A DNA stretch of 64,000 nt from NCBI GenBank assembly GCA_036675505.1, contig JAKFEW010000047.1:8821-72820 (forward strand), written 5' to 3'. The notes under the pieces are model-generated. The model saw nothing but the letters and a program-made list of their open reading frames with translations, was not told the origin of the DNA and searched no databases. Position 1 is the stretch's first letter. Every line of letters starts with the position of its first letter. Made by a program: the position numbers and the translations under genes. Source of the stretch: Candidatus Sericytochromatia bacterium. GTDB taxonomy: Bacteria; Cyanobacteriota; Sericytochromatia; S15B-MN24; JAQBPE01. This document shows positions 1 through 25,966 of this stretch, in pieces.

Positions 1-720
1 GGCCCCGGCGTCCCGCTTCCAGCTGTCGCCGGCCTTGTCCTCGGAGAGCGCGGCCATGAGCCGTTCGACATGAGCTTCCGTCAGGCGGTGGCGCTTCCAC
101 ACCTCGAACGCCTTGGCCTTCGCCTTCTTGCGCTCGCTCGACGGGTAGGCTTCCCAGAACGCGAGGAACGCGGCCGTGTAGGACGGCGGCTTGCCGGGGT
201 CGTCGGGCTCGCGGCGATCGCCGTCCGGAAGTGCATATGCACGAGAGGCGATCGAGAAAACCTCTCCCCCTCCGGGGGGCATGGGGGGATCCATGTTCCT
301 GTTCCTGTTCCTGTTCCTGTTATCCAGGGACGTCCCGGCGACGGGACCGGGACGTCCCGGTGACAGGTCGTCGCCCACGTGTGAACCGCGGTTCACATCG
401 GGTCGGTCAACGCCCTCGGGCTTTTCCCCGCTCCGTTGCCGGGCCTTCTTCTCCCTCGCCTTTCGACGCTGCTCCATGAGGCGGCCGACGTACTCGTCCC
501 AGTCGTGCATGCGCCAGCCCGCGCTGTGCGGGTCGAGCCAGCCGGCCTCCGTCATCGCACTTGCGAAGCTGGCCGGGTCTCCCGCCCAATCCGCTGCTCG
601 GGCGAGGGCGGGCAGGCGGGCAGGCTCAATGATGCCGTCCTCGGTGAAGTCGACCGCCCAGGCGATCGCCATCGCCACATGGCCGACAACCGTCGCGCGG
701 CCGATGCCGGCAACGTCCAT
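1..720 (-). CDS. Hypothetical integrated-element protein. Start ATG at 718-720; the 3' end lies beyond the window edge. Possibly replication-related.
   Basis: Hand translation of the minus strand gives an uninterrupted frame from ATG(720) to position 1 (MDVAGIGRATVVGH...WRMHDWDEYVGRL...FLAFWEAYPSSERKKAKAKAFEVWKRH...). It is co-oriented with the excisionase and integrase. It is absent from the ORF track because no stop lies in the window. Confidence 0.45.
   Translation of the reverse strand, partial: MDVAGIGRATVVGHVAMAIAWAVDFTEDGIIEPARLPALARAADWAGDPASFASAMTEAGWLDPHSAGWRMHDWDEYVGRLMEQRRKAREKKARQRSGEKPEGVDRPDVNRGSHVGDDLSPGRPGPVAGTSLDNRNRNRNRNMDPPMPPGGGEVFSIASRAYALPDGDRREPDDPGKPPSYTAAFLAFWEAYPSSERKKAKAKAFEVWKRHRLTEAHVERLMAALSEDKAGDSWKRDAGA
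295..318. repeat. (GTTCCT)x4 hexanucleotide microsatellite encoding NRNRNRNR inside the 1-720 ORF
   Basis: gttcctgttcctgttcctgttcct read directly in the sequence. The unit is 6 nt, so slippage would change repeat number without breaking the frame. Confidence 0.8.
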
Positions 721-792
721 CAGGCGATCGGTCTTAGGATGGCGCGGCAGGCTCGTGTGGAACTCGAACCAGACGCCGGGGTCGCGCACGGC

Positions 793-981
793 CTACGCTC
801 CGGTGCGGGTAGCCGTGCGATCGGCCAGCCACGCCTCTACCTGGGCCGGGACGTACATCCGGCGCCTGCCGACTTTCACGAACGGAAGATTGTACCGGCC
901 GGTGCACGCCCAGATATCGAGTGTGGCGCGTTTCACGCCGATCGCCTGAGCCGTCTCCTCTGCGCTCATCATTTTGAGCAT
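793..981 (-). CDS. AlpA/Xis-family excisionase-like HTH DNA-binding protein (62 aa)
   Basis: MLKMMSAEETAQAIGVKRATLDIWACTGRYNLPFVKVGRRRMYVPAQVEAWLADR resembles the prophage AlpA/excisionase HTH (MerR-like) domain. AGGAGG lies 6-8 nt upstream of the ATG at 981. The ORF-track upstream extension looks spurious. Confidence 0.7.
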   Translation of the reverse strand: MLKMMSAEETAQAIGVKRATLDIWACTGRYNLPFVKVGRRRMYVPAQVEAWLADRTATRTGA

Positions 982-1201
982 GGCTACTCCTCCTTGAAGC
1001 CGCGTGGGGCGGCGTGTACCGCACCTGCTTACGCCACCCTTAATGGGTTTGGGGTAATGCTGGTGGACAACAAGAAGGATAGGTAAAGCTGACTCACATA
1101 GGGAGGCTACCCCCTTAACTCTAGGGACAGGGCATTGGGGCCGCAAAAGCAAGACCCCACCCCGAAAATAAGGGGTGGGGTGCTTGCGAGGGCTTAACTT
1201 T

Positions 1202-1897
1202 TCAGTGCTCGAGTCGCTTCCGCCTCCTGTTCTTGTTCGGCTCTTTCTTGTAAACAACTCTCCAAAGGCGCTCCACATCGTGGGTCGCAGGCGCGCCCCC
1301 CGTTAAGGCCAGCAGGCGCTCGCGAAGAAACGCTTCTGTGTCGGACCTCTCGTGGTCCTCGTGGCTGGCTCGCCGGGCTATCGCTTCTGCGATCACGATC
1401 TCCTCGGGGGTCAGGGTAGGGCGCGGCGGTGGCGCGGCGGGCTGTTCAAATGTCGTCGCCTTGACGACCGGCCGGGCGCAAGGAAGGTACTTAGCCAGGG
1501 GCGCCGGGAACGGCGTGATCCCGATCGCCTCCACCCAGCGTGCGAGGTTGAGGCGGCTCACGTCCTCGTCCTCCTCGTCCCAGCCGGGCCGAGCTGCGCG
1601 CAGCGCAACGGCCGCGGGCGGGTCGCTCGACACGTACCCGTCGCGCACAGCTTCCCGGAGGTCGTCCCAAATGGGGCCGACGGCATCAGGAGCGGGGACG
1701 GTTGGTGCGTCGACCCGCTCCTCTACACCTTGGCATAGAAACAGGGCTTCGAAGAATGGAAGCCTGTCACCGGTCTCGTCGCGTGAACTGCGCATCGTCT
1801 CGAGGGCCGGCGCGATGCCAGCACGGTCGCCGCGCGCAAAGCGCCCCCAGCCGCGCGCGGCGCTGCTGTATTCCGCGGCTTGCTGCTCGCTGTCCAC
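1202..1897 (-). CDS. Hypothetical protein of the integrated element
   Basis: 231-aa ORF between the integrase and excisionase on the same strand. High GC3. No recognisable domain. Confidence 0.45.
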   Translation of the reverse strand: MDSEQQAAEYSSAARGWGRFARGDRAGIAPALETMRSSRDETGDRLPFFEALFLCQGVEERVDAPTVPAPDAVGPIWDDLREAVRDGYVSSDPPAAVALRAARPGWDEEDEDVSRLNLARWVEAIGITPFPAPLAKYLPCARPVVKATTFEQPAAPPPRPTLTPEEIVIAEAIARRASHEDHERSDTEAFLRERLLALTGGAPATHDVERLWRVVYKKEPNKNRRRKRLEH

Positions 1898-1900
1898 GTG

Positions 1901-3142
1901 CTACCTCCCCGCCTTGGCGCGCGGCCTGCCTGCCGCGGCCTTGGACACCGCGGCGGCAGCTACCGGGAGGGCGGCGATCTTGGCGGCGGCCAGATGGAGG
2001 GCCTGGTGAGCATCGCGCTTCGCGTCGCGCACCGGGTCGAGAGAGAGGCGCGCGTATACCGCCGTGGTGGCCTGGCTCTTGTGGTTCAGGGCCTTGCCTA
2101 CGACCGCCATGCTCGCGCCGCTGTCAACCATGAAACTGGCGAGCGAGCGGCGAAGGTCGTGGATGCGAAGGTCAGCGATGCCGGCTCGGTCAAGGATGCG
2201 CTGCCAGCCCGCCTTGGGGTCGGCCAGGTGGCCGGCGGCCCCGGTTCCCGGGAACACCCACGGAGAGGTGGAGGTGGCCTGCCGGCGCTGGAGGATGTCG
2301 AGCTCGGCGTTCTCCAGCGGGATGGTCTGGGCGGTGCCGTTCTTCGTGAGCGGGATGCGCCACGTGCGCCCCTCGATGTCGATCTCGTCCCAGCGCATCG
2401 CGAGCACGTTCGCCTTGCGCGCGCCGGTGTAGAGGCTCAGGAGCACGTAGTCGCGCATCGCCTCGCTGGGGTCCTCGGTCACGGCGGCCAGGAAGCGGGC
2501 GACTTCGTGCGGCATCAGCCGGCGCTCGCGGCTCTGCTCGGCGAACGCTTCGACGCCAGCCGCCGGGTTGGGGCCCTTCATCTGGCCCTTCTTGATCGCC
2601 TTGTTGAACACGGCGCGCACCAGCGCCAGCATCCGGTTGGCCGCGTACCGGCCGTGCTCCTCACCGACGCGCTGGTGAAGGGCCTCGACGTCGCGCCCGG
2701 CGATCTGGGAGGGCTTCCGGTTCACGAGCGGGCCCAGGTACGAGCGCACGAGCTTGCGGTACTCGATGATGGTCCGCTCGCCGCGGTCGCCGGACTTCTT
2801 CGGCTGGGCGAGGTACCATTCGCATAGCTCGCCGAAGGTCTTGGCTTGCCGCTCCTCGCGCCGCTGAGCGTTCGGGTCCTCGCCCTCTGCGATCTGATTG
2901 TTGAGCCCTTCGGCCTTCTTGCGGGCCTGCTCGATGGTCAGGTCGGGGTAGGTGCCCAGGCGGATCTGCTGCGGCCGGTCGTTGTACCACCGGTAGATGT
3001 AGAAGGACTTGGCGCCTCGGTCGGTCACGCGGATCGCGAGGCCCCGCACCTTGGCGTCGTACACGAAGTACCGCTTGCCGGCCTCGGCCGGCGGCAGGGT
3101 GTCGATGATCGCTTTGGTGAGGCTGCGTCGGTCCTGCGCCAT
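1901..3142 (-). CDS. int: P4-type tyrosine recombinase/integrase
   Basis: The N-terminal arm-binding region (KRYFVYDAKVRGLAIRVTDRGAKSFYIYRW) is DUF4102-like. The C-terminal catalytic region contains ...RIHDLRRS...HKSQATTAVYARL (conserved R..H..R..Y). The likely true start is M31 (MAQDRRS), which has a GGAGG RBS. The ORF-track start at 3232 has none. Confidence 0.85.
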   Translation of the reverse strand: MAQDRRSLTKAIIDTLPPAEAGKRYFVYDAKVRGLAIRVTDRGAKSFYIYRWYNDRPQQIRLGTYPDLTIEQARKKAEGLNNQIAEGEDPNAQRREERQAKTFGELCEWYLAQPKKSGDRGERTIIEYRKLVRSYLGPLVNRKPSQIAGRDVEALHQRVGEEHGRYAANRMLALVRAVFNKAIKKGQMKGPNPAAGVEAFAEQSRERRLMPHEVARFLAAVTEDPSEAMRDYVLLSLYTGARKANVLAMRWDEIDIEGRTWRIPLTKNGTAQTIPLENAELDILQRRQATSTSPWVFPGTGAAGHLADPKAGWQRILDRAGIADLRIHDLRRSLASFMVDSGASMAVVGKALNHKSQATTAVYARLSLDPVRDAKRDAHQALHLAAAKIAALPVAAAAVSKAAAGRPRAKAGR

Positions 3143-3320
3143 CTGAGACCTCCATTTCATATGCCCGGGGTTCGGGCATAGGCCGGGCATAGAAGATAGG
3201 TATATATGCGCAGTTTTACGAAACCCTGTCAACCTAGATAATTACTGCATATGCACTTTCTAGCAACCCTTCCCGGCATAGACTGAACTATACGATTCTA
3301 GGTGCGCCCACACACTTTTA

Positions 3321-3356
3321 ATCTGCGGGTCCCGGGTTCAAGTCCCGGCGCGCTCA
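3321..3356 (+). other. tRNA 3' fragment (variable-loop remnant, T-arm and acceptor 3' strand) = att core at the element junction (attR)
   Basis: The fragment reads ...ggtcccgggttcaagtcccggcgcgctcA. The T-stem is ccggg/cccgg, the T-loop is ttcaagt, the acceptor 3' strand is cgcgctc, and the discriminator is A. No matching 5' acceptor strand (gagcgcg) lies within 100 nt upstream, so this is a fragment and not a gene. Confidence 0.6.
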
Positions 3357-3367
3357 TAAGTGAAGAA

Positions 3368-3402
3368 GCCGCTTTCCAGGATTGCTGGAAGGCGGCCTTT
3401 TT
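3368..3402 (+). terminator. Rho-independent terminator immediately after the tRNA 3' fragment
   Basis: gccgctttcc-aggattgct-ggaaggcggc stem-loop with one G-U pair, followed by cTTTTTg. Confidence 0.6.
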
Positions 3403-3474
3403 GTTGGGGCATACACCGGGCATACAACGGGCGAGAGGTCTCGGCGCGCCGTCGTGGCCCGGAACATCACCTCA

Positions 3475-4035
3475 TCACGGATTCCAGAGGATTAGACGAT
3501 CTGGAAGACTCGTGAAAGCCACTTGGCCTTCACGGCCGATCGTGAGGTTGGCGATCCACCATGGGGCGGGCTGATTGGGCGTGGGGCACAACATCATCAG
3601 CTTGAAGCCGCTGGAACTGCCCACGTCCGGCTCTGACGCAATCAACGAATGGCGGGAGCCATCGGCCTGGAACCGCACGATAGCCGTCGCGTATGGGTTG
3701 CTCTCGCCGTGAGCGCCGTCGAGTGGGCCGGCTTCGGCGACGATTACTGGTCCACCGGGAACGCCGGAGAGCGCCATCGGGTTCGTCACCCGACGGCCGT
3801 GCTCCCATGGGCGGGGCGCTTGGTCTGGCACCACATACCAGAGCGCGTCGACTCGTGTTTCGACCCGCGCCTCGGATTCAGTCGTCGGCTCGGCCTCGCG
3901 GTGCTCGTCCTCCTCGATGGCCGCATCCTCGTCAGCTTTTTCCGGCTCCTCCCACTCGTCGAAGTAATTGAACCCGGAATCGACCAGTCCCACGACGAAT
4001 GCGGCTGTCGGCACATAGATCGTGACTGCATTCAT
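3475..4035 (-). CDS. Hypothetical protein
   Basis: 186-aa ORF with an acidic middle region. No recognisable domain. Confidence 0.4.
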   Translation of the reverse strand: MNAVTIYVPTAAFVVGLVDSGFNYFDEWEEPEKADEDAAIEEDEHREAEPTTESEARVETRVDALWYVVPDQAPRPWEHGRRVTNPMALSGVPGGPVIVAEAGPLDGAHGESNPYATAIVRFQADGSRHSLIASEPDVGSSSGFKLMMLCPTPNQPAPWWIANLTIGREGQVAFTSLPDRLILWNP

Positions 4036-16858: not shown

Positions 16859-17021
16859 ACGGGGTTATCGCCCGCACTGGCACGCCACGCGCTCAAGGAC
16901 TGATTAAGGTGAGGCAAAACTTCAGCTGGTTCGGCTGTAACAAAAACGGCTTGACGACCGTTACACGGATCACATAGAATCATAACCTGGACTTAACCTT
17001 AATTGAACAGGGAGAGAACGC

Positions 17022-18329
17022 ATGCGGACGACGACGACGCGGCGCAAGGTGATCGGGATCGGCCTCACGGCCGCCCTCGCGGCCACGATGGCCGGCTGTG
17101 GCGCGGGACCCCGCATGGCCGGCAGCGTCGCCGCCGGCGACCTGGTGACCCAGGGCGCGCGCGATCCCGGCCGCGACGAGGGGCCCACCCAGTCCCTGTT
17201 GCAGCCGGCGCATGCGCTGCGCGGCCCGAACCCCGTGCGCAGCGGCAACTTCGCGCGCCTGCACGCCTCGGCGTCGCAGACCCTGCCCGCGCTGCGCGCG
17301 CTGATCGGCTCGGCGAAGCGGTCGCTCTGGTTCGAGACCTTCAACTTCGGCAACGATTCGATGGGCCAGCAGATTTACCCGCTGCTGATCGAGAAGGCCA
17401 GGGCCGGCGTCGAGGTGAAGGTGATCATGGACTACGTCGGCAGCCGCTTCCTGCCGAAGCACGGCGAGATGGTCCGCGCGATGCGTCAGGCCGGCGTCGA
17501 GGTGCGGATGTACAAGCCGCGCTGGATCGTCAAGGACGACAAGCAGCGCGGCATCAACATCCAGCACCGCAAGGTCTACCTCGCGGACGGCGAGCGCGGC
17601 CTCACCGGCGGCGTGAACCTCATGCAGCCCTTCGACACCCACACCGAAGACGTGCTGGTGGAGTACCGCGGCCCGATCATCCGCGACCTCGCGGCCGAGT
17701 ACGCGTTCGACTGGAAGGCGAGCGGCGGCGATACGCTGGCGCTGCCGCCCCAGGCGCCGCCGCAGCCGGATGGCGACGTGGAGGCCCGCGTGGTCGTGAC
17801 CAGCCCGGCCGAAGGCCGCTTCGAGGGCCGCGACGCCATCTACGCCGGCCTCGCCGCCGCCCGGCGCCAGATCGAGATCGCGAACCAGTATCTCTGGGAC
17901 GACGGCATCATCAAGCGCCTGCACGCGGCGCTCGCGCGCGGCGTGAAGGTGCGCGTGATCGTGCCCGGCGACGAGGACCACGGGCCGTTCAAGGCGCTGC
18001 ACGGCGAGGAGCTCAAGAAGCTCACTGAGCACGGCGCGGAGGCGCGGTTGTTCACCGGCACGCACGCCGAGGCGCACCTGCACACGAAGTTCTTCGGCGC
18101 GGACGACGCCTGGGTGGCGATCGGCTCGACCAACGGCGACACGCGCGCGCTGATGGACAACCAGGAGCTCGACACGATCATCACGGACCCCTGGCTCGCC
18201 AAGGATTTCCGCGACCGCATGTTCCAGCGCCTCTGGACGAGCGAGTCGAAGCCGTTCGTCTACAAGCCGGGCGGCCCGATGACGAAGCCGTTCCGGACCC
18301 TGCTCGAGATCATCGACTACTACCTGTAG
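17022..18329 (+). CDS. Phospholipase D-family (HKD) lipoprotein, paralog A
   Basis: Lipobox LAATMAGCGAG. Two HKD motifs (NIQHRKVYLADGERGLTGGVNL, HLHTKFFGADDAWVAIGSTNGDTRAL). Confidence 0.85.
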   Translation: MRTTTTRRKVIGIGLTAALAATMAGCGAGPRMAGSVAAGDLVTQGARDPGRDEGPTQSLLQPAHALRGPNPVRSGNFARLHASASQTLPALRALIGSAKRSLWFETFNFGNDSMGQQIYPLLIEKARAGVEVKVIMDYVGSRFLPKHGEMVRAMRQAGVEVRMYKPRWIVKDDKQRGINIQHRKVYLADGERGLTGGVNLMQPFDTHTEDVLVEYRGPIIRDLAAEYAFDWKASGGDTLALPPQAPPQPDGDVEARVVVTSPAEGRFEGRDAIYAGLAAARRQIEIANQYLWDDGIIKRLHAALARGVKVRVIVPGDEDHGPFKALHGEELKKLTEHGAEARLFTGTHAEAHLHTKFFGADDAWVAIGSTNGDTRALMDNQELDTIITDPWLAKDFRDRMFQRLWTSESKPFVYKPGGPMTKPFRTLLEIIDYYL

Positions 18330-18333
18330 CCAG

Positions 18334-19701
18334 TTAGAACAGGAAGTCCACCGACTCCAGGATACTGAACAGCCACTTCTTCCAGAAGGGCAGCGCCTCG
18401 ATGGTCGCGAGCGCGATCGGCTTCGCCGTCTTCCAGTCGCGCTCGAGCTGCTCGTCGATGAACTTCTTCGCCGCGGCCTTGTCGTAGATGATGCTGTTCA
18501 GCTCGTGGTTCTGCGACAGCGTGCGCGCGTCGCCGTTCGCCGAGCCGATCGAGAGCACCTTGCCGTCGACGACCATCGCCTTGAAGTGCGAGAAGCTCTC
18601 GACCTGCTCGTTGCCGACCTTGAAGTTGCTCAGGAAGCGGACCTCGATGCCGGCCGCGAGCAGCTGGCGGGCCGACTCCATGTTGAGGTTGCCGTACAGG
18701 AAGCCCGGGATCCCGCGCTCGCCCTTGCCGGGCATCATCACCTTGATCGAGAGCTTGGGGTTGCGCTTCTTGGCCTTGATCAGCTCGTCGATCATCGCGT
18801 CGTCCGAGAAGTACGGGTAAACGATGCGGATCTCCGAGGTGGCGTAGCGGATCAGCTTGAGCTGGGTCTCGCGCAGCTCGGTCTTCTTGGCGTGCGGGTC
18901 GGTCACGACCGACTGCACCCAGGCCGCGCCGCCCTTGGCGGGCTTCACTTGCGGGATGTGGGCGGGCACCTTGCCGCCGGCCTTGACCCAGTTCTTGAGG
19001 AACTCGCGCTGGATGCGGGCGGTCTCGTCGCCCTCGACCGTGTACATCAGGTCGTGCCAGGCCTTCTCGGTGCCCTGGCCGGGGTTGAAGAAGGTGGGCT
19101 TGAGGTACTCGTCGCCGATGTTGCGGCCGCCCGAGAGGAACTTCGTGCCGTCCTGGATGAAGAGCTTGCGGTGGGTGATCGGCGTGGCGCCCGTGGCGGT
19201 GGGGTCGACGCTGCCGCGGTTGAACTCGCGGACCTCGATCCCGTTGTCGCGCAGGAACTTCACGATCTCCGTGTCCTTGGTCGGGTTCGTGGCGTCGCGC
19301 AGGCCGGACCAGTCGATCAGGACCTTCATGTCGAAGGGCTCGCCCTTCTCGTCGGCGAGGCGCTTGCGGTCGATCAGGGCCTGGGCGATCTCGCGGCCGG
19401 ACTCGTCGTTGTGCCAGATGAAGATCTCGAGCCAGAAGGCTTCCTTCGAGGTCTTGATCGCGTCGAGGATGGCGAGGCGCGATTCGTCGGGCGAGACGTG
19501 CAGGGTGACCTTGTTGTGGAAGGTGGGCTGGTTGAGGGCCAGGCGCTCGACGCCGAGCGTGCCGTTGCGCGCGAGCACCCGGTTGGCCGTCACGTCCTTG
19601 GGGGGCGCGATCTTGGCCTCCAGCTTGGGCAGCCGGCGGTCCTGGAACTTCAAGATCTTTTCGCGAATGTTCGTCGGCATCGTCAGATCGGCTCTCAACA
19701 A
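18334..19701 (-). CDS. Phospholipase D-family (HKD) protein, divergent paralog B (no obvious signal peptide)
   Basis: Two HKD motifs (THRKLFIQDGTKFLSGGRNIGDEY, SHFKAMVVDGKVLSIGSANGDARTL). The protein is Lys-rich and its codon usage has lower GC than the flanking genes. Confidence 0.85.
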   Translation of the reverse strand: MLRADLTMPTNIREKILKFQDRRLPKLEAKIAPPKDVTANRVLARNGTLGVERLALNQPTFHNKVTLHVSPDESRLAILDAIKTSKEAFWLEIFIWHNDESGREIAQALIDRKRLADEKGEPFDMKVLIDWSGLRDATNPTKDTEIVKFLRDNGIEVREFNRGSVDPTATGATPITHRKLFIQDGTKFLSGGRNIGDEYLKPTFFNPGQGTEKAWHDLMYTVEGDETARIQREFLKNWVKAGGKVPAHIPQVKPAKGGAAWVQSVVTDPHAKKTELRETQLKLIRYATSEIRIVYPYFSDDAMIDELIKAKKRNPKLSIKVMMPGKGERGIPGFLYGNLNMESARQLLAAGIEVRFLSNFKVGNEQVESFSHFKAMVVDGKVLSIGSANGDARTLSQNHELNSIIYDKAAAKKFIDEQLERDWKTAKPIALATIEALPFWKKWLFSILESVDFLF

Positions 19702-19902
19702 GGCGGCAGGCGCCTGTGGATCTTGTCCCGCATGATCGGGCCGAATCTTCTTATGCTGGGGTTAACCGGGGGGCGTCGAAAGGTTAAGGAGTTGAGTTTT
19801 TCGATACAGCCTGTTGACGAATCGCCTAACAAGGTTTAGGATAGGTTAAGGGGATAACTTGGAGTTAACCACGGCGCACTGGCTCGGGAGGTTGGACGTT
19901 CG

Positions 19903-21201
19903 ATGAAGAGCGGAACCCGGATCGTCTTCACGGTTGCGATGGCAGCGCTGCTCGGCGCGTGCACCACCTTGTCGACTCCGCCCAGCGCCGGCACGAAGGC
20001 CGGCGCCCTCCAGGCCCTCGACGCCGTCGACGGCCCCGAGCCGCGCCTCGACCAGTACCCGACGCTGACGATCGACGTGCCGGCGCGGCCCACGCGCACC
20101 GCGCCGCGGCCCACCGGCGGCAACGTCGTCACGCCGTACGTGTCGCCCGCCGAGACCCTCCCGGCGCTGCTCGCGCTGATCGACGGCGCGAAGTCGTCGA
20201 TCTACCTCGAGACCTTCAACTTCGGCAGCCAGTCCTATGGCGAGCGGCTCGTGCCGCGCCTGATCGCGAAGGCCCGCGCGGGCGTCGAGGTGAAGGTGGT
20301 CATGGACTACTGCGGCAGCCGCTTCCTGCCGGGCCACAAGGAGATGCTGCGCGACCTGCGCGCGGCCGGCGTGGACGTGCGCCGCTACCTGCCGCGCGGG
20401 ATCCGCAAGGACGACCGGCAGATCGGCATCAACATCCAGCACCGCAAGGTCTACCTCGCGGACGGCGAGCGCGCGCTGGTGGGCGGCGTGAACCTCATGA
20501 AGGGGTTCGACACGATTCACCAGGACATCCTCGTGGCGTTCAGCGGGCCGGTGGTGGCGGACCTCTACAAGGAGTTCGCCCACGACTTCAAGGCCGCCGG
20601 CGGCAAAGCCGCGGTGCGCCTCCCGGCGCCGGTCTCGGCGGGCGGCTCGGCCACCACGCAGGTCTGCGTGACCAGCCCGGCCGAGGGCCGCTTCGAGGGC
20701 CGCGACATGATCTATGCGGGCATCGACGCCGCCAGCCGCTCGATCGTGATCGAGAACCAGTACCTCTGGGACGATCGCCTGATCGGGAAGCTCTACGCGG
20801 CGCTCGAGCGCGGCGTGCGGGTGCGCGTGATGGTGCCCGGCGAGGAAGCCAAAAAGGTGTGGCAGCACGTGCACGCCGAGGAGCTCAAGCGCCTCGTCGA
20901 TCGCGGCGCCGAAGCGCGCGTCTACCACGGCGATCCCTTCGAGGCCCACCTGCACGTGAAGTACTACTCGGTGGACGACCGCTGGACGGCGATCGGCTCG
21001 ACCAACGGCGACACGCGCGCGCTGCTCGACAACCAGGAAGTCCAGATCGCCGTCACCGACCCCGGATTCGCGGTGGAGCTGCGTCAGCGGCTCTTCGAGC
21101 GCGACTGGAACGAGCGCTCGCAGCCGTTCGTTTACAAGCCGGGGACCTTCATCAGCCGCCCCTTCCGGAGCCTGATGGAGATCATCGACTACTACTTGTA
21201 G
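19903..21201 (+). CDS. Phospholipase D-family (HKD) lipoprotein, paralog C (close paralog of A)
   Basis: Lipobox LLGACTT. HKD motifs (NIQHRKVYLADGERALVGGVNL, HLHVKYYSVDDRWTAIGSTNGDTRAL). It is collinear with paralog A over its whole length. Confidence 0.85.
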   Translation: MKSGTRIVFTVAMAALLGACTTLSTPPSAGTKAGALQALDAVDGPEPRLDQYPTLTIDVPARPTRTAPRPTGGNVVTPYVSPAETLPALLALIDGAKSSIYLETFNFGSQSYGERLVPRLIAKARAGVEVKVVMDYCGSRFLPGHKEMLRDLRAAGVDVRRYLPRGIRKDDRQIGINIQHRKVYLADGERALVGGVNLMKGFDTIHQDILVAFSGPVVADLYKEFAHDFKAAGGKAAVRLPAPVSAGGSATTQVCVTSPAEGRFEGRDMIYAGIDAASRSIVIENQYLWDDRLIGKLYAALERGVRVRVMVPGEEAKKVWQHVHAEELKRLVDRGAEARVYHGDPFEAHLHVKYYSVDDRWTAIGSTNGDTRALLDNQEVQIAVTDPGFAVELRQRLFERDWNERSQPFVYKPGTFISRPFRSLMEIIDYYL

Positions 21202-25882: not shown

Positions 25883-25954
25883 GCCCCGATGGTCTAGTGG
25901 TTAGGACACCACCCTTTCAAGGTGGTAACACGGGTTCAATTCCCGTTCGGGGTA
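25883..25954 (+). tRNA. tRNA-Glu (anticodon TTC)
   Basis: Cloverleaf folded by hand. The acceptor pairs gccccga with tcggggt (G1-U72 wobble). The D-arm is gtct/agtggttaggac. The anticodon stem is ccacc/ggtgg and the loop is cTTTCaa. The T-arm is acggg/ttcaatt/cccgt. The discriminator is A and there is no encoded CCA. It resembles the E. coli tRNA-Glu architecture. Confidence 0.85.
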
Positions 25955-25966
25955 CTCGCTTTCTGG

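Follow-up and report, generated by a model that had tools for sequence, protein, structure and literature searches.

A tRNA-Lys(UUU) fragment with arm-type repeats on both sides at the integrase end of a likely phage-derived element

Tracts of mobile DNA that target tRNA genes, and that decay or stack there, are well established biology, and an integrase end at a tRNA attachment site is an ordinary feature. The locus at the left edge of our window (the whole stretch of DNA analysed, 64 kb) is ordinary in this sense except for one property: repeats of a single motif flank the tRNA piece left and right. Is the DNA beyond that piece original host sequence, or did it arrive with a mobile element? 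The left 3.3 kb is most likely the integrase end of a phage-derived integrative element of more than 12 kb that attaches at tRNA-Lys(UUU), and the tRNA 3' end and terminator beside it are, judging from the repeats, probably not native host sequence. The left edge carries the following features.

1-789, minus strand: Rep-like ORF, the first 263 codons of the gene for a phage-type replication initiator (306 aa in full), cut by the left edge of the window
294-321, no strand: (TGTTCC)x4.7 tandem repeat within rep (TRF), translated as an Asn-Arg repeat linker
380-397, no strand: 18-bp perfect palindrome TGTGAACCGCGGTTCACA, present in three exact copies in the element
793-981, minus strand: AlpA-like HTH_17 protein of 62 aa (Pfam HTH_17 and phrog_66)
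1154-1181, minus strand: terminator-like hairpin after the int-orf231 gene pair (hairpin search)
1202-1897, minus strand: gene of unknown function, 231 aa, starting 3 nt past the integrase stop codon
1901-3142, minus strand: 413-aa tyrosine integrase (N-terminal arm-binding domain and catalytic domain)

The initial annotation had seen here four co-oriented minus-strand genes, namely a replication-like ORF leaving the window on the left, an AlpA/Xis excisionase, a hypothetical gene and a DUF4102/P4-type tyrosine integrase. Gene calls and family profile matches bear out the whole set, with the excisionase as a candidate. The Rep-like product matches the phage-type replication initiator family phrog_9474 (E 1.8e-37 for the part in the window; 2.6e-47 at full length in contig L011, where a DnaC-like loader gene comes after it). 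The palindrome, which recurs in L011 at 8380 and 11792 and has no copy elsewhere in the 64-kb window than the one at 380, is a candidate operator or origin site. The 62-aa protein matches Pfam HTH_17 (E 5.6e-6; 27.0 bits, equal to the gathering score of 27) and phrog_66, described as "excisionase and transcriptional regulator" (E 5e-8); it has no match to PF05930 (Phage_AlpA) itself, and it belongs with the small AlpA/excisionase-type HTH proteins by way of HTH_17. It shares 39-43% identity with the genes at the same position in four related elements (L013, L014, L036 and L038). In a further relative, L039, the gene at this position matches PF05930 and gives no significant BLASTP match to the window protein. 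By position and family, the 62-aa window protein is a candidate excisionase or regulator. The 231-aa gene has no Pfam or PHROG family, and the genes at its position in the relatives are not conserved with it.

The integrase contains the Arm-DNA-bind_3 domain (PF13356, formerly DUF4102; E 2.3e-16, residues 8-97) and the Phage_integrase domain (PF00589; E 2.6e-24), and matches phrog_1 (E 4e-65). Its catalytic set, R242, K267, H328, R331, H354 and Y363, is invariant in an alignment with 11 homologues. Both the catalytic residues and the arm-binding domain place the protein in the P4-like tyrosine recombinase subfamily, and site-specific recombination at t(m)RNA genes is predicted for it from the sequence context. 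The ATG at 3142 is the start favoured by gene calling, by the alignment with homologues and by a ribosome-binding site (GGAGG), which puts the tRNA piece 172 nt away and not 90-125 nt as first estimated. A Logan contig continues the element 8.6 kb further to the left, through genes for a DnaC-like loader, a Bro-N anti-repressor and a small terminase (PF03592, 27.9 bits against a cut-off of 26.1; phrog_51, E 2.3e-12), and the element is therefore phage-like and longer than 12 kb. Of phage genes, the 12 kb seen contains only those for the small terminase, Rep, DnaC and Bro-N, and we find neither relaxase or type IV secretion genes, as an ICE would carry, nor a second recombinase.

To the right of the integrase start, the junction is composed as follows.

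3160-3168 (minus strand), 3172-3180 and 3183-3191 (plus strand): P-arm repeats (C)GGGCATA, 18-49 nt upstream of the integrase ATG
3272-3280, plus strand: P-arm repeat variant CCCGGCATA, with one mismatch
3314-3356, plus strand: 3' piece of tRNA-Lys(UUU), beginning with the final base of the anticodon-stem 5' strand and reaching the discriminator
3368-3403, plus strand: rho-independent terminator, a hairpin (3368-3396) and a T run (folding)
3407-3432, plus strand: P'-type tandem arm repeats GGGCATACA(C/A)C (TRF: period 11, 2.4 copies)
3475-4035, minus strand: orphan ORF of 186 aa (orf186), with low GC3 (0.73)

The tRNA piece can be read directly: CTTTTAA (3315-3321), TCTGC, GGGTC, CCGGG-TTCAAGT-CCCGG, CGCGCTC and the final A (3356). 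These 42 nt run from the anticodon loop to the discriminator of a tRNA-Lys(UUU). A 3' tRNA fragment had been described here before and is real; it is longer than the 36 nt then proposed and begins at the anticodon loop. The anticodon-stem 5' strand is mismatched (ACACA where GCAGA is expected), and both the D arm and the 5' acceptor strand are missing. Rfam, applied to the sequence cut at 3310, reports a 5'-truncated tRNA at 3310-3356 (model positions 26-71 of 71; 21.2 bits, E 0.015). Neither ARAGORN nor Rfam finds a complete tRNA near 3300, and the only tRNA that ARAGORN reports in the window is the tRNA-Glu at 25883-25955. The earlier statements that no 5' half is present and that the target differs from this tRNA-Glu thus hold. 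The rho-independent terminator noted directly after the piece is also confirmed, with a folding energy of -25.7 kcal/mol (z -5.1 against shuffles). As in an Islander-type tRNA island, a displaced 3' fragment in the correct orientation adjoins an integrase-bearing element.

What sets the junction apart is the distribution of GGGCATA. Of its seven copies in the 64 kb, five cluster at 3160-3424 to the left and right of the tRNA piece, leaving a background of two copies outside the locus. The cores of the tandem pair on the right (3407-3413 and 3418-3424) are spaced 11 nt apart and lie about 51 and 62 nt beyond the tRNA end. The relatives have comparable repeat clusters beside the integrase start, each with its own motif, and the spacing and tRNA-end distance of our tandem pair agree with the P' arms of the L013 attL, of the L036 attP and of L014. 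The junction is thus laid out as P arm, core and P' arm, as far as the repeats allow the arms to be named. Binding of the integrase to GGGCATA itself is suggested by comparison with the relatives.

Two of these relatives are particularly informative. In L013 the island is complete and measures 8.1 kb; it has a 49-nt direct repeat without mismatches, its integrase gene adjoins the fragment, and an intact tRNA-Thr stands at the opposite end. Its attL has a tandem arm pair 49 and 60 nt past the tRNA end, no arm motif is found in the host flank beyond its fragment, and its attP and attB part ways exactly at the tRNA end. L036 is a circular relative of 9,090 bp (integrase 69% identical) present in three SRA runs. 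Its attP shows, in order, the integrase start, three repeats, a tRNA-Lys piece, a hairpin and, at 52 and 63 nt from the tRNA end, a tandem pair. A hairpin equivalent to the one at 3368-3403 follows the tRNA piece in both the L036 attP and the L013 attL. In this integrase clade, then, attP itself contains a terminator and a fixed arm-site pair after the tRNA piece, so that a "fragment plus terminator" cannot safely be taken as native host sequence.

Data from Logan point to a second copy of the site. In two SRA samples, k=31 contigs terminate at 3343 and begin at 3348, which implies that the segment 3314-3377 is present in a second context; it is the break at 3343 that puts the beginning of the shared stretch at 3314. 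The left side of this context differs exactly where an intact anticodon stem would; we take the pairing of left and right contexts from the source assembly, since the Logan graph leaves it unspecified. Beyond the tRNA end the two copies stay identical for another 21 nt, as would be expected of two homologous P' arms and not of attP against a native attB. An attL with an intact tRNA-Lys would be expected to the left of the window. An exact search of viral, genome and metagenome collections with the 30-mer at 3327-3356 gave no match.

We give slightly better than even chances to the following account: a phage-derived element sits at a tRNA-Lys(UUU) gene that had been rebuilt by an earlier or tandem related element, whose relic now lies to the right. 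The native origin of the tRNA 3' end and terminator is doubtful because GGGCATA repeats with P' geometry follow them, and with repeats on both sides of the piece the DNA beyond has the look of something left over from a related element that came earlier. The integrase would be heterobivalent, its N-terminal domain binding the (C)GGGCATA arm repeats and its core-binding and catalytic domains acting at the anticodon stem-loop. Strand exchange would take place in or next to the 7-nt anticodon loop (3315-3321). We place the crossover there because L012, whose integrase is 73% identical, shares the element-side ACACA with the window and differs in the T arm and acceptor. The final 42-43 nt of the tRNA would be duplicated on the element, and integration would rebuild the tRNA gene at the far (left) end while the integrase gene lands beside the displaced piece. 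The AlpA-like HTH_17 protein would most likely serve in excision or regulation, and through the arm sites that lie 18-49 nt before its start codon the integrase gene is probably also repressed by its own product. The tRNA piece, the terminator and the GGGCATACA pair would most likely be the attP-derived 3' end of the earlier or tandem related element, which would since have lost its integrase end; the present element would then have entered the tRNA gene that the relic had rebuilt.

The DNA to the right bears on this history. The flank is chromosomal, with lspA, prfC, AcrB/OEP and two-component systems; tRNA-Glu, RND and CDF efflux genes and metabolic genes also occur in the 60 kb, and from 6 kb to 64 kb we see ordinary chromosome free of mobile-element genes. 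For many ORFs in the window, Pfam gives no family. The right flank shows no second integrase or integrase remnant and no likeness to the element, and a second tRNA-Lys fragment is likewise not found right of the junction; this counts against the account, since deletion would have had to remove the entire far end of the relic. Nor does GC content mark a relic boundary: it is slightly lower up to about 6 kb, yet within the normal range of the window. No homologue of orf186 is found among 5.8 billion proteins, and it may be cargo of the relic element. The peptidoglycan (PG)-binding protein, also encoded just right of the junction, is nearly an orphan.

Could the junction instead be an unrecombined attP (3143-3440), with orf186, the PG-binding gene and perhaps everything up to about 6.2 kb forming the other end of the same element? 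Such an arrangement might reflect another route of entry that left a decayed composite island, or a contig joined through reads of the excised circle. One arm motif on both sides is what the circular L036 attP shows, and orf186 with its low GC3, the nearly orphan neighbour and the somewhat lower GC up to about 6 kb would fit. However, ordinary chromosome from 6 to 64 kb requires a second, unexplained junction, the 12 kb of element seen contains no second recombinase, the GC signal stays inside the normal range, and the 21-nt identity past the tRNA end is unexpected for attP compared with a native attB. We consider this unlikely.

The account originally given, a plain attR, treats the tRNA piece, the terminator and 3397-3440 as original host DNA, the GGGCATACA pair being there by chance or for some host reason. 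Its first half is well founded: this is the integrase-proximal boundary of a tRNA-targeting element with a displaced piece, and the orientation and the integrase-by-fragment layout recur in the true attR of L013, L038, L039 and L040, the last three of which also have the integrase next to the fragment and host genes beyond. A chromosomal right flank, lacking a second fragment or integrase, agrees with it too. The native origin of the 3' end is the improbable half. In a plain attR the host flank would be free of the element's arm sites, whereas a GGGCATA pair lies at 3407-3424; with a background of two copies per 64 kb, a chance pair with P' spacing and offsets is very unlikely. The three host-flank controls with a defined arm motif (L013, L038 and L040) have no such repeats, the search in L038 and L040 having been made with their own motifs; beyond the L039 fragment there is no repeated 8-mer, the arm motif of L039 itself being one that could not be defined. 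The second-copy identity, reaching 21 nt past the tRNA end, again speaks against it, and we regard a native origin as quite improbable. That the source contig, all 87.5 kb of it, represents a circular integrative plasmid or a giant element with this site as its attP, for which the attP-type layout and the many ORFs lacking a Pfam family could be cited, is highly implausible against lspA, prfC, tRNA-Glu, the RND and CDF efflux genes and the metabolic genes, and against the absence of conjugation, partition and virion genes from 60 kb of the window.

Several known systems can be compared with the relic-bearing site that we favour. With the P4-like and CP4-57-type integrases it shares the domain architecture, the complete catalytic set, a small AlpA-like HTH gene nearby, and predicted integration into a t(m)RNA gene whose 3' part is replaced by an end that the element brings. 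It differs in that even the closest homologues from genome collections reach no more than 37% identity, and in that the HTH protein matches HTH_17 (PF12728) and not Phage_AlpA (PF05930). Unlike the distant relatives L005-L007, where a tRNA gene lies directly upstream of the integrase gene and co-oriented with it, here the integrase is tRNA-distal and antiparallel to the piece. Repeats that flank the core and a dedicated arm-binding N-terminal domain recall the heterobivalent attP of lambda. In contrast to lambda, the anticodon stem-loop of a tRNA forms the core, the P' arm contains the tRNA 3' end, the terminator and a fixed tandem pair, and the P-arm sites abut the integrase start codon. The order of integrase, AlpA-like, Rep and small terminase genes, with no adjacent large terminase in the 12 kb seen, resembles PICI-type phage satellites; compared with these, the element exceeds 12 kb and is seen in part, no capsid-redirecting or helper-interference genes are recognised in the 12 kb, and the element may instead be a full prophage.

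The span of the fragment, anticodon loop to 3' end, is that of the anticodon-centred attP class (Williams 2002; Islander), from which the site differs in host lineage and element and not in kind. This class accounts for 2,083 of the 3,919 islands in Islander, where 3,760 have a 3' fragment and 125 tandem arrays are recorded (PMC4383910). As in tandem arrays, a tRNA fragment lies between stretches of element-type DNA, and both L012 and L014 (integrase 54% identical), which have a tRNA-Lys(UUU) piece beside the integrase gene in the same orientation as the window, show tandem occupancy of tRNA-Lys. Unlike Islander's tandem members, the right-hand member here lacks both an integrase and a separate fragment; as a truncated relic it would fall outside that definition. 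There is a slim chance that the relic P' arm is functional, making the junction attP-like and able to recombine with attL without excisionase, or making the relic tRNA-Lys an improved landing pad. If so, a relic-bearing tRNA-Lys would recruit related elements repeatedly and lead to tandem accretion. For annotation, the right limit of the mobile element is 3313/3314 and its target tRNA-Lys(UUU), and the geometry of arm repeats can tell attR, attL, attP and tandem junctions apart from sequence alone.

Gene calls, together with Pfam and PHROG matches, bear out the four co-oriented genes that the initial annotation placed at the left edge of the window:

1-789, minus strand: Rep-like ORF running off the left edge (phrog_9474, E 1.8e-37)
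793-981, minus strand: HTH_17/AlpA-like gene, 62 aa (Pfam, E 5.6e-6; phrog_66 "excisionase and transcriptional regulator", E 5e-8)
1202-1897, minus strand: 231-aa gene of no assigned family
1901-3142, minus strand: tyrosine integrase, 413 aa (Arm-DNA-bind_3, formerly DUF4102, E 2.3e-16; Phage_integrase, E 2.6e-24)

The integrase looks intact, since the catalytic residues (R242, K267, H328, R331, H354, Y363) are all invariant in an alignment with 11 homologues. The gene calls, the homologue alignment and a GGAGG ribosome-binding site place its start at the ATG at 3142 and not at the upstream TTG at 3232. The gap between the integrase and the tRNA piece is therefore 172 nt, which corrects an earlier estimate of 90-125 nt.

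A Logan contig from SRR17380409 (L001/L011, 11,991 nt) is 100% identical to window positions 1-3343 and reaches 8.6 kb farther left, adding the following genes:

Rep, complete, 306 aa
DnaC-like helicase loader (phrog_50, E 1.3e-36)
Bro-N anti-repressor (phrog_130, E 1.6e-44)
two proteins without assigned function
small terminase (phrog_51, E 2.3e-12; Pfam Terminase_2 above cut-off)
additional proteins without assigned function

Judging from the predicted Rep, DnaC-like loader, Bro-N protein and small terminase, the element is phage-derived, a new example of a well-known element type. There is no att repeat at the far end of this contig, so the element must be longer than 12 kb; a full prophage and a satellite are both compatible with the ~12 kb seen. 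Two sequence features of the element may be mentioned here. The rep gene contains a perfect tandem repeat, (TGTTCC)x4.7 (294-321), translated as an Asn-Arg repeat linker and perhaps prone to slippage. A perfect 18-bp palindrome, TGTGAACCGCGGTTCACA, has three exact copies in the element (window 380-397; L011 8380-8397 and 11792-11809), located within rep, at the overlap of terS with the next gene and in one intergenic region, and no further copy in the 64-kb window; its role might be that of an operator or origin site.

ARAGORN finds a sole tRNA in the window, the tRNA-Glu at 25883-25955, and Rfam finds no complete tRNA near 3300. When the search is begun at 3310, the Rfam tRNA model gives a 5'-truncated match at 3310-3356 (model positions 26-71 of 71, 21.2 bits, E 0.015). 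Direct reading yields CTTTTAA (3315-3321, the anticodon loop, anticodon UUU), TCTGC, GGGTC, CCGGG-TTCAAGT-CCCGG, CGCGCTC and A (3356). The piece is the 3' 42 nt of a tRNA-Lys(UUU), which agrees with the expectation that the target differs from the tRNA-Glu at 25.9 kb. The fragment first described as 36 nt long is thus a real tRNA 3' fragment, but it is longer and begins at the anticodon loop. The 5' half is absent upstream, as had been noted: pairing in the anticodon stem would require GCAGA as its 5' strand, but the sequence there is ACACA, and neither a D arm nor a 5' acceptor strand can be recognized ahead of the piece. The rho-independent terminator reported after the fragment is also real (3368-3396 plus a T run; dG -25.7 kcal/mol, z -5.1 versus shuffles). 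A mini tRNA-like shape can be drawn in 3301-3356, with 3302-3308 able to pair with 3347-3353 (Rfam mascRNA model, E 1.7); we rejected it as chance because its stability is no better than that of shuffles (z -0.88). There is also a sigma-70-like promoter match on the plus strand at 3215-3242 (TTTACG, 16 nt, GATAAT), in the AT-rich P arm and directed at the tRNA piece and terminator. A short RNA covering the tRNA fragment might arise from it, but AT-rich DNA may equally yield such a match by chance.

The integrase has about 2,000 homologues, and we examined the genomic contexts of several. Among genome, metagenome and viral contigs the integrase matched distant relatives only (<=37% identity), and viral contigs yielded no match to Rep. 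The most complete context is an 8.1-kb island (L013; integrase 55% identical) bounded by an exact 49-nt direct repeat that extends from the anticodon stem to CCA; its far end holds an intact tRNA-Thr(CGT), and its integrase lies 160 nt from the displaced fragment, antiparallel to it. In L012 (73%) and L014/L015 (54%), a tRNA-Lys(UUU) 3' piece adjoins int in the same orientation as in the window. L012 and the window have the element-side ACACA in common and differ in T arm and acceptor, which locates the crossover within the anticodon loop or beside it. Host genes lie beyond the fragment in L038 (58%), which has a tRNA-Phe(GAA) piece, and in L039 (52%) and L040 (51%), where the fragment is another t(m)RNA 3' end. 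The remaining relative (L035, L036, L037) is one 9,120-nt contig found circularly permuted in three SRA runs (SRR8893621, SRR8893622, SRR32548947) with a 30-nt end overlap, hence a circular element of 9,090 bp; its integrase is 69% identical and its tRNA-Lys-type attP is intact. This circle also encodes a ParE toxin and a 730-aa AAA_25 protein. As far as these sequences indicate, the layout of the clade has the integrase at the tRNA-distal end, adjoining the displaced piece, and the geometry originally proposed for the window agrees with it.

What lies beyond the piece complicates the picture. The heptamer GGGCATA, a predicted integrase-binding arm site, has only seven copies in the 64-kb window, and five of them fall within 3160-3424, on both sides of the piece:

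3160 (minus), 3174 (plus), 3185 (plus): GGGCATA core copies, 18-49 nt upstream of the integrase start; 3174 and 3185 form a tandem pair spaced 11 nt
3272-3280: one-mismatch arm variant CCCGGCATA
3407, 3418: second GGGCATA tandem pair, 11-nt spacing, 51 and 62 nt beyond the tRNA end, behind the terminator

TRF independently calls a period-11 array at 3407-3432. At the corresponding places each of the relatives carries an arm motif of its own. The circular attP (L036) runs from the int start through three TGCCTACC and an inverted copy to the tRNA-Lys piece, a hairpin and, 52 and 63 nt past the tRNA end, two TGCCTACC in tandem. In L013 the tandem GGTAGCACC pair stands at attL, 49 and 60 nt past the intact tRNA, with a terminator supplied by the element in between; no such pair occurs in the host DNA flanking its displaced fragment. 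Likewise, the plain host flanks of L038 and L040 lack their own arm motif beyond the fragment, and L039, whose arm motif is undefinable, has no repeated 8-mer there. Because repeats flank the piece as in the relatives' attP and attL, the window junction is best read as P arm, core and P' arm, not as P arm, core and host flank. The terminator belongs to the attP architecture of the clade and so is no evidence of native host sequence. The arm sites abut the integrase start, which suggests that the integrase may repress its own gene. AATCTGCG(G/T)G, a match to the 3' anticodon stem region within the core, recurs in the P arm ~33 nt upstream of the core in L012 (~9475-9440) and L036 (~1405-1370). 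This additional copy is absent from the window and may serve the integrase as a further core-type site.

Logan contigs come from de Bruijn graphs with k=31, where no 31-mer appears twice, and the output omits contigs <150 bp (PMC12424806). The element-side contig stops at window position 3343, and flank-side contigs from two samples (L002, L003) begin at 3348, the pattern expected of a 64-nt segment (3314-3377) common to two contexts. Its left limit, 3314, is the first position where an intact anticodon stem (GCAGA) would depart from the ACACA of the window; a simple SNP bubble at 3344-3347 is less likely as the cause of the breaks because of this coincidence. Indirectly, then, the breaks are strong evidence that these samples also contain an intact tRNA-Lys sharing this 3' part. 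Looking for attL or an empty attB through exact copies of the 30-mer 3327-3356 turned up neither in the viral, genome and metagenome collections. We also sought the empty site through the neighboring genes. The first, orf186 (3475-4035, minus strand, 186 aa), borders the att region on the right. A search of 5.8 billion proteins gave no homologue of it, and its GC3 of 0.73 is below the roughly 0.9 of neighboring chromosomal genes. The next, a secreted PG-binding protein, has one homologue (54%), on a 719-nt contig.

With some reserve, we favor the reading that the left element integrated at tRNA-Lys and that the DNA right of the crossover is the attP-derived 3' end of an earlier or tandem related element whose integrase end has since been lost. 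The relic would comprise the tRNA piece, the terminator, the tandem arm pair and perhaps orf186. This fits with the stacked elements that L012 and L014, of the same clade, have at tRNA-Lys, and with the documentation of tandem arrays elsewhere (125 among 3,919 islands; PMC4383910). Moreover, the inferred common segment reaches 21 nt beyond the tRNA end, an identity expected of two homologous P' arms; the attP and attB of L013, on the other hand, cease to match where the tRNA ends. Right of 3400 we find no second integrase, no second tRNA-Lys fragment and no similarity to the 12 kb of the element seen. L012 (5721-9450) and L014 (8216-9840) are tandem arrays, with the tRNA-Lys piece beside int followed by a second element that carries an HTH_17 gene, a Phage_int_SAM_3-type integrase and its own tandem repeat pair with 11-nt spacing (GTGCAGCCAC or GTGGCTTAT).

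It is tempting to sketch how such an element would move. A heterobivalent integrase would bind the arm repeats through its N-terminal domain, while its core-binding and catalytic domains would act at the near-symmetric anticodon stem-loop, with strand exchange in the anticodon loop. The tRNA gene would be rebuilt at attL from the element's own tRNA 3' copy. The AlpA-like protein would aid or regulate excision, the excised circle would be replicated by Rep and the DnaC-like loader, and the small terminase would tie the element to phage packaging.

The junction is unlikely to be an unrecombined attP, whether this lies in a decayed island or the contig was joined by reads from the excised circle, as a second, unexplained junction would be required. 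We give little credence to a plain attR with native flank, the interpretation first put forward. Its boundary, orientation and non-Glu tRNA target stand, but the native 3' end and terminator are probably wrong: the GGGCATA pair lies beyond the piece, where the control relatives have no such pair, and the terminator is part of attP.

That the stretch is part of an 87.5-kb circular element is scarcely credible, being contradicted by the gene content: from about 6 kb on, the window is ordinary chromosome (lspA, prfC, tRNA-Glu, a CDF transporter, an AcrB/OEP/HlyD efflux system, histidine kinases, enoyl-CoA hydratase and others), with no conjugation, partition or virion genes. GC content was rejected as a boundary marker, since the values at 1-6 kb (0.65-0.67) are matched by equally low 2-kb bins elsewhere in the chromosomal part. 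At 17007-21201 there are three adjacent PLD-domain (cardiolipin-synthase-like) paralogues of about 440-475 aa on alternating strands.
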